64,000 bases of DNA from a virus. Its lineage: Duplodnaviria; Caudoviricetes. The notes beneath the pieces are model-generated. The model searched no databases, was not told the DNA's origin, and saw only the letters and a program-made list of their open reading frames with translations. Shown here piece after piece: positions 35,535-39,944 of this stretch. Each line of letters starts with the position of its first letter. The stretch's first letter is position 1. The stretch covers positions 4,089 to 68,088 of the IMG/VR virus record IMGVR_UViG_3300001598_000051; one strand, written 5' to 3'. Made by a program: the position numbers and the translations under genes.

Positions 35535-38500
35535 ATGGCCAGGACACAATTCTCGGCACAGGTCTATGACCGACAGAACACAAGGGAACTAAGACACGTT
35601 AAGAGCCGAATACAACGCGCCTACGACGCGCTGTGCAAAGAGGCTGGCATTATAGGAACCGCCACAGGATGGTCGGATCCGAATAAGCAATTCAAGCTGA
35701 GCGACTATCCGAACGCACAGAAGAAGATCGAGAAACTTCTGGAAGGTCTGTCCGGAGAGATCCAAAGTATCATCACGGACGGAATAGACGCAGCCTGGGA
35801 GCTGAGCCACAAGAAAAACTCGTCCATGGTGAAGAGCCTGGCTAAGCAATACGGATGGAGCGAGGAAAGGGCCAACGCACTCAGCAGACGAAACCTTGCA
35901 AGCCTGGCAGCATTCAAAGCCAGGACAGACGCAGGAATGCACCTGTCAGACCGCGTGTGGGACTTTGTCAAGAACGACAGACAAAATATCGAATGGGCGC
36001 TCGAACTCGGCCTGTCCGAAGGAAAAAGCGCAGCAGCACTCAGCCGGGATGTACGACAGTATCTCAACGAGCCAAATAAACTCTTCCGAAGAGTACGAGA
36101 CAAACATGGGAACCTGGTGCTTAGCCAGGCAGCGAAGGCATACCATCCAGGACGTGGTGTATATCGAAGCAGCTACAAGAACGCACTACGACTCGCAGCC
36201 ACAGAGACCAACATGGCCTACCGTACTGCAGATCATGAGGCATGGCAGAAGATGCCGTTTGTCATAGGCATAGAGGTCAAGCTGAGTGACGTACACGCGA
36301 CGAGCAACATCCAGGGAAAGAAATATCCGCATCGATATGCAGACATGTGCGACGAGCTCGCAGGCGTCTATCCGAAGGACTTCAAGTTCACTGGATGGCA
36401 TCCTCATTGCCGTTGCTTTGTCATCGCCAAGCTCGCGTCAAGGGACGAGCTGAAGAAATACTCACAGCTTACAGATGAGCAGCAGAAGAACTACCACTTT
36501 GAAGGAGAGGTGCGAGAAGCACCGAAGGTATATAACGAGTGGATCCAGAAAAACGAGCTGAGAATTACAAACGCGAGCAGCACTCCATACTTCATCAGAG
36601 ACAACGCACACTATACAGACGCGGCCATTCATCCGGAGAAATACCAGGTGAAGAGCCTCGTTTTGCAATATGACGTAGTGGACAGTCTAAACGCATTCAG
36701 GGAATACGCATCGACACACCCAGGATCTAAAAAGTTCCAGGAGGCACTCGACAAGGCACTTAAAGCGCAGCTTGGAGGCAACCAGGACGAGTTCGATGCT
36801 GCCATGAAGGAATTAAGCAAGATCCAGTCAACGAACGAGCGTGTGGCAAAATATCTCAAGGATAAGAAAGCTGCAACGCCAAAAGAAGATCCTAATAAGA
36901 AACTCTTAGAAGAAGACCTTGCAAAGTTTACAAAAGAACAGATAAAGAATATTGAAGACCTCGAAAAGGCGCTGAAACAGAAGAGGGGACTTCAGATGAG
37001 TTACGAGAAGGCAAATACTGGACGAGAGAATCCAAAATACAATCCTAAATATCTCAGAGATCCTAATGGTAATTATCAGGACGACAAAGGAAATACATAT
37101 ATTTTGAATCCGAAATGGAAAGAGAAAGACAGCGGATATAGCGTGAATTGCCAGACATGTACGGTCATCCATGAGCTTAGAAGACGAGGGTTTAATGTAG
37201 AAGCGATCGACAACTACGACAGAAAAGTCTGGAAGATATACGACAAGCAAGGTCTAACAAACCACAGACTCGGTAAATGGCTTGACAAAGACGGTAATCC
37301 TGTAGGTTATACATACGCATACACAAGCAGCAAAAAAATCAACACAAAAGAAGGTGTTGAGGAATTCTTTGAGGAATTCTCAAAAGGGAAAGATGGAAGA
37401 TTTGAGATAAGTGTCGACTGGAAAAGCGGAAGCGCACATGTCTTCTGCGCAGAGAGAATAAACGGTAAATGGAAATTCTTTGATCCGCAGAGCGGAAGAA
37501 TGGACGTATGGCACACAGACTACGCACTGAGAGCAAAACTACCGATGTGTGGCATTGTTCGCACAGACGACAAACTGATCAATACGAAACTTGTCGAGAC
37601 CTTCATTGCAAAGGGAGAACTCCCAATAGGCAAGACAATCCAAATCACGAAGGAGCAGCGAATCGCAGATGCTGCAATGAAGAGACACTTCAATAGAACG
37701 GAGGAAGACAAGCAGAAGCTGACAGACTTCTGGAATAAGAGAAAACAGGAAACCAAGCAGCTGCGCAATGAGATGAACAATGCTATCATTAGCGCACACA
37801 ACATCGAAGATGCAAAGAACGCAGTCGGAGATCTTGAAGATATCATACTCGGTAATAAATACTCCATCAAAACAAAAGCAGGAAAGACTGCTACTGGTAG
37901 CATAGAGAAACTGAAGGAGGCGACACTCGGCATCAAGAAGATCGTCGAGGAATACAACGCAACGATCAGCGAAGCCAAAGCTCTCGCCAAAGAGTTTGCA
38001 GGCATCAAGGGTATCGACACAAGTGCTGCAGTCAACGCCAAGAGCATCAAGACAGCCAAGGAAGAGATCGAGAAGCTAAAGGCAGAGAAGGCAAAGATCA
38101 TCCAGGAGGCAAAGAATATCACATTGAACGCCAAAGACAACGCATGGGTACCAGCATCCGAGCTTGACAAACTGAACGATCCTTCTAAATTCAAGACGCT
38201 GAAAGAATATAAGAAGCACGCTGAGAACGTCAAGAAGATGGCAGAGGAAGCAGATGCAGCCATGACTGCTATGGAGGATATTATACCTGATGTAAAGACA
38301 AAGTGGTCAAAGAAGTTCACGAAGGAAGAGCTCCAGGAGACCATCGACAACTACTACAAGAATATCAACAAATGGAAGTCGAAGTATCAAAGCGACTCAT
38401 ATCTTAAGGCCAATTATACAGAAGACGAGTATCTCATTAAGAAGAGCAAGTACGAAGCATACGACTATCTCGGCACAAATATGAACGATTGCCAGTCGAA

Positions 38501-39944
38501 GATCAAGACATGGGAAGCCGCTCAATCTTCATACTTGAAACTCGTAGATAAGACAGAGAAGAAGATATGGACGAATGCATCTAACGAGAAGATAAAAGAA
38601 TTCGTCGAATTCTCGAAGGCCCATCCAAAAGCAATCACGCTCGCAGGATGCGTGAAGGATCTAAGCGATGCTATCAACAAATACGATATCGCTATGTTCG
38701 AACAGAAGATAGCGCAGGCTGAATCGCTGAAGAACACACTCGAAAAGAGGGCAAACAAGGCAGCACAAGCAAAGCTGAAAGCAACAGCAGGTGATCCGAA
38801 TGCTATCAATGACCTCCGGAATTCACAAGCAAACGACAACCAGTTCTGGGATGCAGCAGGACTGGCATGGACGCGCAAGGATAAGGTGTTCAAGAACCAG
38901 GCACAGATCGACGAGTTTGAGAGCGCAGTCAAGTCTCAAGACCGAGACCTTGTAACAAAATTGTTACAGAAGCGAGGTATCGACCTCACAAACCCATACG
39001 ATCAGTACAGAAAGGATGCAGCCACATGGATCAAGACATGCGACGAAGCAAGAAGTCACTGGCTTGACTATGCAAGAAAGGCGTGGACAAATGGTACAGA
39101 CAAGGAGAAGTATGCGGCATGGAACTATACAGAGGGATCATGCTATCTTACACAGACACTCCGAGGAAATGACGGATTCTGTTACTATACTGGATCGAGA
39201 AAGAACATCAACACAATTACAGAAGACGAGATCAATCTCACCTCATGGATATCTAAGAACAAGTTCGACGAAGATATGTGGGTGAAGAGAGATGAGTTAT
39301 CGAGCATCACCAATGACGTGTTTGGAATTGATCTAAGCAAGTACATGGCAGATTATAAGGTAAGATACGAAAACGACATTAAGATTAAAAATAATAAGAT
39401 TAAGATTGATAGAATAGAACAGAAGTCTTCGTTAACAAATAACGATAAATCATTTATCAAACAGTTAAAAGACGAGATCAATAATCTTGAGGCTGAAAAT
39501 TCGAAGCTAAAGTCACTTATAGGAACAGAGGGTGTTGATGAATCATTTGCATCAACAGGAAACAACAAAGAGACATTGTTCTGCGGTGGAAAAGACGTCA
39601 TGCTTAATATTTACTGCCCGAGAGGAACACAGGGAATATACGTAGATCCGTTCTCGAACTTTGGATATGTCAACGGTAAACAGAACGAAGAAAATGGTCT
39701 AAATTGGAACGGAAAAGATATCTCTGACGACGGAGAAAACGAGATTATTCTCCAGAGAGGCGCTAAGCTCCGAATTATAAAAGTCGAGTTTAATCCTAAT
39801 GACTACTACGGTCACGGAAGATGGTACATCGATGTGGAACTTGTCGAGCAGAACCCGAGGAAGGTAGTAGAATACAGACATGACAGGAAATCTGATTTTC
39901 ATGGGAAAGATGGATGGTACGCAGTATTCGAAGGAGACAAATAA
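35535..39944 (+). CDS. MuF-like minor head protein fused to papain-fold (Tox-PL-like) and ADP-ribosyltransferase domains
   Basis: MuF: NALRLAATETNMAY...GWHPHCRC; papain triad NC539QTC, AH635VF, FD650PQ; ART: VKR1252, FAS1340TG, E1401NE1403IILQRG. Confidence 0.88.
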   Translation: MARTQFSAQVYDRQNTRELRHVKSRIQRAYDALCKEAGIIGTATGWSDPNKQFKLSDYPNAQKKIEKLLEGLSGEIQSIITDGIDAAWELSHKKNSSMVKSLAKQYGWSEERANALSRRNLASLAAFKARTDAGMHLSDRVWDFVKNDRQNIEWALELGLSEGKSAAALSRDVRQYLNEPNKLFRRVRDKHGNLVLSQAAKAYHPGRGVYRSSYKNALRLAATETNMAYRTADHEAWQKMPFVIGIEVKLSDVHATSNIQGKKYPHRYADMCDELAGVYPKDFKFTGWHPHCRCFVIAKLASRDELKKYSQLTDEQQKNYHFEGEVREAPKVYNEWIQKNELRITNASSTPYFIRDNAHYTDAAIHPEKYQVKSLVLQYDVVDSLNAFREYASTHPGSKKFQEALDKALKAQLGGNQDEFDAAMKELSKIQSTNERVAKYLKDKKAATPKEDPNKKLLEEDLAKFTKEQIKNIEDLEKALKQKRGLQMSYEKANTGRENPKYNPKYLRDPNGNYQDDKGNTYILNPKWKEKDSGYSVNCQTCTVIHELRRRGFNVEAIDNYDRKVWKIYDKQGLTNHRLGKWLDKDGNPVGYTYAYTSSKKINTKEGVEEFFEEFSKGKDGRFEISVDWKSGSAHVFCAERINGKWKFFDPQSGRMDVWHTDYALRAKLPMCGIVRTDDKLINTKLVETFIAKGELPIGKTIQITKEQRIADAAMKRHFNRTEEDKQKLTDFWNKRKQETKQLRNEMNNAIISAHNIEDAKNAVGDLEDIILGNKYSIKTKAGKTATGSIEKLKEATLGIKKIVEEYNATISEAKALAKEFAGIKGIDTSAAVNAKSIKTAKEEIEKLKAEKAKIIQEAKNITLNAKDNAWVPASELDKLNDPSKFKTLKEYKKHAENVKKMAEEADAAMTAMEDIIPDVKTKWSKKFTKEELQETIDNYYKNINKWKSKYQSDSYLKANYTEDEYLIKKSKYEAYDYLGTNMNDCQSKIKTWEAAQSSYLKLVDKTEKKIWTNASNEKIKEFVEFSKAHPKAITLAGCVKDLSDAINKYDIAMFEQKIAQAESLKNTLEKRANKAAQAKLKATAGDPNAINDLRNSQANDNQFWDAAGLAWTRKDKVFKNQAQIDEFESAVKSQDRDLVTKLLQKRGIDLTNPYDQYRKDAATWIKTCDEARSHWLDYARKAWTNGTDKEKYAAWNYTEGSCYLTQTLRGNDGFCYYTGSRKNINTITEDEINLTSWISKNKFDEDMWVKRDELSSITNDVFGIDLSKYMADYKVRYENDIKIKNNKIKIDRIEQKSSLTNNDKSFIKQLKDEINNLEAENSKLKSLIGTEGVDESFASTGNNKETLFCGGKDVMLNIYCPRGTQGIYVDPFSNFGYVNGKQNEENGLNWNGKDISDDGENEIILQRGAKLRIIKVEFNPNDYYGHGRWYIDVELVEQNPRKVVEYRHDRKSDFHGKDGWYAVFEGDK

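Follow-up and report, generated by a model that had tools for sequence, protein, structure and literature searches.

MuF-fused toxins are, to our knowledge, widespread in temperate phages of gut bacteria, and only two of them, Bxa and Apk2, each carrying a single toxin, have been studied; Bxa of the prophage PhiBxa is reportedly also attributed to Brown and colleagues in 2021. The present analysis concerns a MuF protein carrying two enzymatic domains, and the genes adjoining it, in a 64,000-nucleotide stretch of phage DNA (hereafter the window, whose positions are used throughout). This window covers bases 4089-68088 of the IMG/VR virus record IMGVR_UViG_3300001598_000051, a record of 68,088 bp with direct terminal repeats that is rated 100% complete. 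Bxa is a protein of 869 amino acids (aa) from a Bacteroides stercoris prophage; it comprises a MuF domain, a middle domain and an ADP-ribosyltransferase (ART) domain, and its immunity proteins BAH and Bsi have been characterised (Alexei et al. 2024, PMC11699363). In that work, Bxa was found to ADP-ribosylate arginine, mutation of E820 abolished its toxicity, and the immunity functions of BAH (catalytic residue E15) and Bsi were shown experimentally. Homologues of its N-terminus (Bxa-NT) are fused to an ART, a glutamine deamidase or an alarmone synthetase, with one toxin per protein (PMC11699363), and fusions of MuF with Tox-PL1 papain-fold domains were described by Zhang et al. 2012 (PMC3482391). 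Phages and conjugative elements also encode polyvalent proteins, which are multi-enzyme and have MuF and ART as hub domains (Iyer et al. 2017, PMC5512222), and MuF toxins were surveyed in 2017 (PMC5576092). A term search found no mention of papain or deamidase domains in the former paper, nor of two toxin domains, papain or Bacteroidetes in the latter. A search of the open-access literature returned no description of a MuF-papain-ART combination or of the three-gene immunity set reported below.

The protein encoded in the window is probably a polymorphic toxin of the Bxa/MuF family, in which two toxic enzymes are borne by one minor-head-protein scaffold and whose immunity operon adjoins the toxin gene. 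Two toxic activities are favoured over a mere processing peptidase because there is one immunity-type gene set per enzymatic domain. The toxin gene and its parts are the following:

35535-39944, + strand: toxin gene (P0001) for a putative MuF-papain-ART polymorphic toxin; ATG start, 1469 aa, no internal stop
35535-36674, + strand: N-terminal MuF/head-morphogenesis domain of Bxa-NT type (residues 1-380) with a GWHPxCRC motif; from PHROGs
36990-37550, + strand: papain-fold Tox-PL1/Gln_amidase domain (residues 486-672) with N538-C539, H635 and D650-x-Q652; from PF15644 and an AlphaFold2 model
37551-38426, + strand: Lys/Glu/Ala-rich middle region with no recognisable domain (residues 673-964)
38427-39041, + strand: Bxa-type middle-domain segment (residues 965-1169); from BLASTP
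39042-39941, + strand: C3/VIP2-type ART domain (residues 1170-1469) with R1252, S1340 and E1401-x-E1403
39345-39503, + strand: helical-hairpin insertion of about 50 aa within the ART, between the R and S motifs (residues 1271-1323); from the AlphaFold2 model

An earlier note on this DNA, made from the letters alone, had read the protein as a MuF minor head protein followed by a papain-fold domain, helical spacers and a VIP2-like ART, and had proposed that it carries two different effectors. The residues that it named are all present at the positions given: C539 (in SVNCQTC), H635 (GSAHVF), D650 (FFDPQSG), R1252 (WVKRDE), S1340 (FASTGN), E1401 and E1403 (GENEIILQRG). The finding of a separate immunity-type gene for each enzymatic domain lends further support to its two-effector reading.

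Like Bxa, the toxin of the window has a MuF-type N-terminus, a middle segment and a C-terminal ART of the arginine type with an ExE motif (E1403 corresponding to E820); its gene lies in the head module after the portal gene and is followed by a convergent Bsi-like gene and by an ADP-ribosyl(arginine) hydrolase (ARH) gene whose product has Glu15. It differs from Bxa by about 600 extra residues (roughly 368-964), which comprise a complete papain-fold Tox-PL1 domain and a domain-less region, by the helical insertion of about 50 aa in its ART, and by a third, small papain-linked gene upstream of the ARH gene. As a stand-in for Bxa, the comparison used a Bxa-like protein of Bacteroides phage Versailles that is equally 869 aa long; its identity to the window toxin is only about 30-35%. 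The MuF-glutamine deamidase toxins of Bacteroidales (e.g., WP_139147237.1 in Alexei et al. 2024) and the MuF-Tox-PL1 fusions share with the window protein the PF15644 domain, the NC-H-DxQ residues, the Bxa-type MuF domain and an adjoining small gene predicted to confer immunity. However, their papain domain is C-terminal and is their sole complete enzyme, whereas that of the window is internal and precedes a complete ART, and the small gene has moved in the window to the third position, behind two ART immunity genes. Polyvalent proteins likewise combine more than one enzymatic effector domain in a single virion-associated polypeptide, but they have been described as acting in counter-defence and as devoid of dedicated immunity genes, whereas the locus of the window has a toxin-immunity layout. 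This layout corresponds, as judged from the genes, to that of the polymorphic toxin-immunity systems of Zhang et al. 2012, in which different toxin domains are attached to a conserved trafficking domain and putative cognate immunity genes adjoin them.

Domains of the MuF protein and the adjoining operon

Two PHROG families match the whole toxin: phrog_16625 (E = 7.7e-110), which bears the annotation "Bxa ADP-ribosyl transferase", and phrog_35295 (E = 3.5e-112). No NCBIfam family matched the toxin or the two small proteins encoded downstream, and the sole match of the full toxin in a sequence search of the PDB was the coiled-coil arm of a seryl-tRNA synthetase (E = 0.13), attributable to chance. 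Its N-terminal domain matches PHROG families of head-morphogenesis or minor head proteins (phrog_7625, 6e-55; phrog_1657, 2e-25; phrog_115, 3e-19), in agreement with the MuF-type N-terminus proposed earlier. It is 35% identical over 348 aa to residues 51-381 of the Bxa-like protein from phage Versailles and 75-89% identical to the N-termini of P0002, P0003, P0005, P0007 and P0008.

The papain fold and the intact C539-H635-D650 triad announced by the earlier note were both recovered. PF15644 (Gln_amidase, "Papain fold toxin 1, glutamine deamidase") matches residues 538-654 over positions 2-113 of its 114-position profile (E = 1.5e-8, 36.1 bits for a cut-off of 24.1). The AlphaFold2 model of residues 486-672, computed from an alignment of 66 sequences, has a predicted local distance difference test (pLDDT) score of 89.3 and a predicted template modelling (pTM) score of 0.81. 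The NC-H-DxQ signature published for Tox-PL1 domains (Zhang et al. 2012, PMC3482391) is complete in the window (N538-C539, H635, D650-P-Q652). An alignment of 66 papain domains shows N538, C539, R549, H635 and Q652 without exception, together with D (47 domains) or E (19 domains) at position 650. The modelling per domain proposed in the earlier note gave a papain fold for residues 486-672 and an ART fold for residues 1170-1469.

The region that separates the two enzymes, described in the earlier note as long helical spacers, has no recognisable domain: Pfam returned none in residues 673-1169 at E ≤ 10, and a search of the ESM Atlas with the middle region returned nothing. Residues 673-964 are common to the closest MuF-papain relatives that have another C-terminus (47% identity over 294 aa to P0004), and their composition makes a helical or coiled-coil spacer plausible. 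A single BLASTP alignment joins toxin residues 965-1446 to residues 502-857 of the Versailles protein; within it, residues 965-1169, aligned with residues 502-650, correspond to the "middle domain" of Bxa.

The C-terminal domain proved to be a VIP2/C3-like ART with the R-S-ExE motifs (R1252, S1340-T1341, E1401-N-E1403), as expected from the earlier reading. Its AlphaFold2 model (pLDDT 89.4, pTM 0.87) retrieved Plx2A, C3bot1, C3larvin, VIP2, Certhrax, CDTa and BECa with Foldseek (E = 2e-11 to 2e-9, probability 1.0). PF03496 (ADPrib_exo_Tox) matches the 300 C-terminal residues (1170-1469) when these are scanned alone (35.7 bits for a cut-off of 23.4) but not in a scan of the full-length toxin, probably owing to the helical insertion. 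All 42 aligned ART domains keep S1340 and E1403; position 1401 holds E in 34 of them and Q in eight, and position 1252 holds R in 32. The stretch GENEIILQRG aligns with positions 817-826 of the Versailles protein, and the domain is orthologous to the toxin domain of Bxa. Specificity for arginine is plausible since the homologue Bxa modifies this residue and the ExE motif is kept. Compared with the other C3-like, VIP2 and iota-type ARTs (Plx2A, C3bot1, C3larvin, VIP2, CDTa, Certhrax), with which it shares the fold and the R-S-ExE motifs, the window domain is only 13-19% identical, forms part of a phage head protein and harbours a helical hairpin; unlike binary toxins, it has neither a B component nor a secretion signal. 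This hairpin consists of two long helices (model residues 102-126 and 133-154) facing a 48-aa gap in the Bxa-like protein. It is also found in P0014, P0027, L030 and L031 but is absent from most of the Bxa-like ART homologues, and may be an element of target recognition or of escape from immunity.

Beyond the toxin gene, three genes, all intact open reading frames (ORFs), are located on the minus strand and are convergent toward it:

39946-39973, no strand: stem-loop of 12 bp bordered by runs of A and T, starting 2 nt past the toxin stop codon; from a consensus scan
39959-40276, - strand: Bsi-like small protein, 105 aa from ATG; phrog_19606 and homologue at the Bsi position of phage Versailles
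40278-41030, - strand: BAH-like ARH, 250 aa from ATG; PF03747 (E = 9e-35) and phrog_6572 (E = 2e-64)
41044-41262, - strand: 72-aa small protein of a papain-linked family; from the family profile hidden Markov model (HMM)

The stem-loop, located between the convergent toxin gene and operon, is a candidate bidirectional terminator. The Bsi-like and ARH genes are syntenic with those of ART-bearing loci, and their order and orientation match those of phage Versailles, whose proteins are 35% (E = 1.6e-22, gene at the Bsi position) and 56% identical to them, respectively. Read from the ATG at 41030, the ARH begins with MIGAIIGDIVGSRFE and has Glu at position 15. All homologues found of the Bsi-like protein are encoded immediately downstream of a MuF toxin that bears an ART (L025, L027, L030, L031, L001 and L002), and the Bsi-like protein is a candidate for structural immunity to the ART. 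In some loci, immunity-type paralogues occur in tandem, such as the two Bsi-like copies of L001 and L002 (15120-15723, - strand).

The 72-aa protein is the candidate immunity protein to the papain domain. Neither it nor its relatives match any Pfam family, including Imm35. Single-linkage clustering of the ORFs located just downstream of the toxin genes in 160 loci fetched from genome_contigs and IMG/VR, which also drew in some junk ORFs from overlapping frames, gave as its largest cluster proteins of about 75-90 aa; these are found in 87 of the 98 papain-only loci, in all five other loci with both papain and ART, and in none of the seven ART-only loci. An HMM of this family ranks the 72-aa ORF first among the six-frame segments of the window (E = 1.5e-5). 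A reciprocal iterative search with this ORF as its seed, which avoids the junk ORFs of single linkage, converged on 95 ORFs that are present in 95 of the 104 loci with papain and in none of the 57 loci without it, at a median offset of -20 nt, i.e., 20 nt inside the toxin stop codon. Likewise, among 68 MuF loci picked by their MuF motifs alone, the family is present in 17 of the 21 with papain and in none of the 47 without (Fisher p = 1e-12; because the loci are related, this value overstates independence, and the co-occurrence counts share this lack of phylogenetic independence). No member of this family is found in phage Versailles, whose toxin is ART-only. The 72-aa gene is the third of the operon, behind two ART immunity genes, and in the dual loci L001 and L002 the papain-linked gene likewise follows the two Bsi-like paralogues. 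This unnamed family of proteins of about 80 aa, outside Pfam, is thus the likely immunity partner of MuF-linked Tox-PL1 domains. Several IMG/VR loci possibly contain extra small papain-linked ORFs (L095:1592-1864, - strand, and neighbours), a signal that is partly overlapping-frame noise.

Other small ORFs of the same region were considered as immunity candidates and rejected. Those at 41772-42149 and 42189-42488 have no homologue in any fetched locus, and those at 41405-41668 and 42531-42809 occur in phages with all toxin types and are therefore not toxin-specific. The leftward ORFs 41265-41432, 41772-42149 and 42189-42488 (55, 125 and 99 aa, - strand), which share an island with the immunity operon, lack both a family match and any homologue among the 161 fetched loci. 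Between the ARH gene and the conserved 87-aa gene (41405-41668), phage Versailles has a different gene, so this slot seems to be a variable position.

Distribution of the papain-ART architecture

At E ≤ 1e-3, relatives of the papain domain amount to 1385 among representatives of clusters at 50% identity, the best 150 of which were examined for their architecture, with an ART HMM built from domain-only sequences. Papain is at the C-terminal end, as the terminal and sole catalytic domain, in 118 of them; in 20 a different tail exceeding 150 aa comes after it, in 11 (including the window protein) a complete ART does, and one has no papain match to our own HMM. When all fetched proteins are considered, 19 other clusters show matches to both papain and ART, which are complete in all but P0049, and both domains exceed the Pfam thresholds in P0014, P0015, P0017 and P0018. 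Examples of this combination come from metagenome-assembled genomes (MAGs) of Prevotella, Bacteroidaceae and Sodaliphilus (L001, L002, L009) and from IMG/VR contigs (L085, L133); a scan of IMG/VR with a single papain-domain sequence returned nothing, whereas an alignment-based scan did find loci. The window locus and these roughly 20 related protein clusters indicate that a single MuF scaffold can bear two complete enzymes, with a separate putative protective gene for each.

In a maximum-likelihood tree of 66 papain domains, the domain changed between internal and terminal positions from three times (forced by well-supported branches) to eight times. Proteins with papain and ART occupy three separate places (window and L001; L085 and L009; L133), all inside a well-supported clade of mostly terminal domains, and the combination arose at least three times. 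The same type of MuF domain is fused to papain, to ART, to both or to other C-termini, and the families of small genes are distributed according to the toxin domain and not according to the phage. The window toxin looks like a recombinant of two kinds of toxins, the common MuF-papain proteins of about 600 aa and the MuF-middle-ART proteins such as Bxa, and such repeated joining of papain and ART is the modular recombination expected of polymorphic toxins.

The earlier note held two enzymatic domains in tandem to be less usual. This is correct as a frequency, as they are found in about 7% of the nearest clusters; however, the novelty was overstated because the Bxa/MuF family is known, MuF-Tox-PL1 fusions were described in 2012 and multi-enzyme MuF polyvalent proteins in 2017. 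The window protein is a two-toxin variant within the published Bxa/MuF polymorphic-toxin family, and the general picture of polymorphic and polyvalent phage proteins is unchanged.

Two other groups of relatives deserve mention. The closest papain relatives (P0004, P0006, P0009-P0012 and P0213; 56-66% identity) are metagenomic MuF-papain proteins of 1245-1374 aa whose last 300-600 residues or so match neither ART nor any Pfam family and may be undescribed toxin domains. A common class of 908-940-aa proteins (P0048-P0051, P0059-P0061 and others; L148, L150) shows MuF, a partial ADPrib_exo_Tox and then a C-terminal Gln_amidase. In this 918-aa class, the partial match covers only profile positions 3-85 (residues ~403-499) and has the look of a remnant ART that precedes a terminal papain domain, the reverse of the order found in the window.

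Mode of action and rival explanations

By analogy with SPP1 gp7, whose incorporation into the capsid and release are summarised in PMC10083569, the MuF domain would place a few copies of the toxin in the capsid at the portal, and the window protein would be packaged in virions and may be co-ejected. The three proteins of the operon would keep both activities harmless in the lysogen or the producing cell, and the toxin would be released on lysis or ejected along with the DNA. The released ART, if it acts as Bxa does, would ADP-ribosylate arginines on many proteins, a modification that the ARH would reverse, while the Bsi-like protein would block the ART itself, as for their counterparts in Alexei et al. 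2024 (PMC11699363). The papain domain would attack a target protein by hydrolysing a peptide or amide bond; its toxicity and its neutralisation by the 72-aa protein are suggested by its terminal-position homologues, by the co-occurrence of the two genes and by the AlphaFold3-based suggestion made for a MuF-deamidase (PMC11699363). The window locus could also show whether virions really carry MuF toxins.

Several observations weigh against this two-toxin reading. Pfam Phage_Mu_F (PF04233) covers its full profile (positions 1-112, residues 150-297) but remains below its gathering score (19.0 bits versus 29.6), so the MuF assignment rests on PHROGs, on head-module synteny and on the published assignment of the Bxa N-terminus as MuF (PMC11699363); this profile is weak across the whole family, reaching E ≤ 0.01 in one member out of 30. 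For the papain model, Foldseek gave no significant match in the PDB, its best E-value being 0.05, and its weak matches are mostly papain-like cysteine hydrolases. A wide VIA-align search (48,161 chains) placed SpvD first with Z = 8.3, a level that the tool calls common for unmatched models, followed by YopQ (7.6), AvrPphB (6.3), OspI (6.1) and C39 peptidase domains (5.6-6.1); staphopain, UfSP, Josephin-type clippases, streptopain and NlpC/P60 came further down, nearly every row being a papain-like cysteine hydrolase. As the Foldseek matches are not significant and the Z-scores are middling, the papain-fold call rests on the consistency of this list together with the Pfam and signature matches. 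SpvD, OspI and AvrPphB are papain-fold cysteine hydrolases and OspI is a glutamine deamidase. These type-III effectors are the best structural neighbours of the domain and share its Cys-His-Asp triad, but at 7-15% identity and with middling Z-scores a shared substrate is not inferable from them. Glutamine deamidation is implied by the Pfam name and by the neighbour OspI, a likeness that does not establish function, and "deamidase" is therefore a name for this domain and not a result. To these points are added the relatedness of the loci behind the co-occurrence counts and the divergence of the 72-aa protein, which aligns with its family over residues 5-59 only (19.7 bits) and has a shorter C-terminus with 13 divergent last residues. 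It could be a weakened copy; a frameshift was considered as the cause of the short C-terminus and rejected, no continuation in an alternative frame being seen.

Finally, internal Tox-PL1 domains were inferred by Zhang et al. 2012 to be auto-processing peptidases, and papain-like peptidases are listed there as a processing protease of MuF systems (PMC3482391). According to this explanation, the papain domain would free the ART from the MuF scaffold after delivery, and the 72-aa protein would prevent premature cleavage, unless the domain has both roles. The internal position of the window domain, followed by 800 residues and a separate toxin, speaks for it, as does that of its closest relatives P0004, P0010 and P0011 (60-66% identity), which precede other C-terminal regions without match. 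However, the family is most often terminal and the sole catalytic domain, its internal and terminal members mix on the tree rather than forming separate clades, its small partner gene is kept in both forms, which is unexpected for a purely cis-acting peptidase, and ART-only relatives such as Bxa work without any such peptidase. We therefore regard a purely processing role as unlikely, although the evidence against it is compatible with a dual role as toxin and peptidase, and the window locus offers a natural test case for the question raised in 2012 of whether an internal Tox-PL1 domain is a toxin or a releasing peptidase. A coupled device, in which the 72-aa protein holds the papain domain inactive in the producer and in which this domain, once the MuF protein has left the capsid without its inhibitor, frees the ART and attacks a host target, is likewise unlikely; if true, the repeated independent fusion of papain and ART on MuF scaffolds would reflect selection for self-releasing phage-injected toxins.

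It has also to be considered that one of the enzymatic domains is an inactive relic of recombination, which would leave a single toxic activity. The divergent 72-aa protein, the unusual insertion in the ART and the partial ART remnants of relatives such as P0051 (PF03496 positions 3-85 only) and, similarly, P0049 would fit such decay, but all catalytic and signature residues of both domains are intact, both are modelled at a pLDDT of about 89, the insertion occupies a surface position and is common to other full-length homologues, and the three protective genes are intact ORFs; we hold this explanation to be improbable. The papain domain could otherwise serve virion assembly, as a protease of head maturation or scaffold processing, and not as an effector in the target cell. 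The genes located between those of the portal and the major capsid protein include none recognised as a prohead protease, and a possible role in protein processing in the course of assembly was mentioned by Zhang et al. 2012 (PMC3482391). Nevertheless, related phages that share head-module genes with the window (homologues of 42960-43682 in 53 loci, of the 87-aa and 92-aa genes in 22 each) have MuF proteins without papain, which indicates that this domain is dispensable for morphogenesis in this group of phages, and the dedicated small partner gene better fits a toxin-immunity pair than an assembly protease. Such a function is thus very improbable, and two toxic enzymes on one scaffold remain the probable reading.

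Phage and head-module context

The complete record and the presence of integrase, portal, major capsid and tape measure genes identify the source, from its gene content, as a complete temperate siphovirus-like phage of gut type with the toxin gene within its head module. Its landmark genes outside the toxin locus are:

7840-9057: integrase gene
26213-28489, + strand: ParB-like/DNA methyltransferase fusion of 758 aa; phrog_498 (E = 1e-118), matched in two stretches
31629-32993, + strand: SPP1-type portal protein; PF05133 SPP1_portal (E = 1e-23), phrog_64
34800-35372, + strand: MazG-type nucleotide pyrophosphohydrolase; PF03819 (E = 1.6e-5), phrog_229 (E = 1.9e-25)
44269-45390: lambda-E-type major capsid protein
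48206-55036: tape measure protein

The host can be proposed solely from relatives found in MAGs of Prevotella, Bacteroidaceae and Muribaculaceae. Some Bacteroidales-type MuF-toxin loci (L004, L005, L017, L019, L023, L036 and L076) are found on contigs that had been assigned to MAGs of Ruminococcus, Clostridia or Lachnospiraceae, which reflects either mis-binned phage contigs or a broader host range. The portal gene is located 2.5 kb upstream of the toxin gene, from which it is separated by the MazG-type gene and two small leftward genes, and the major capsid gene is downstream. Of these intervening genes, the MazG-type gene is the immediate upstream neighbour of the toxin gene; the hydrolase immunity known for MuF-Apk2 toxins is provided by an HD-domain enzyme and not by MazG (PMC10083569).

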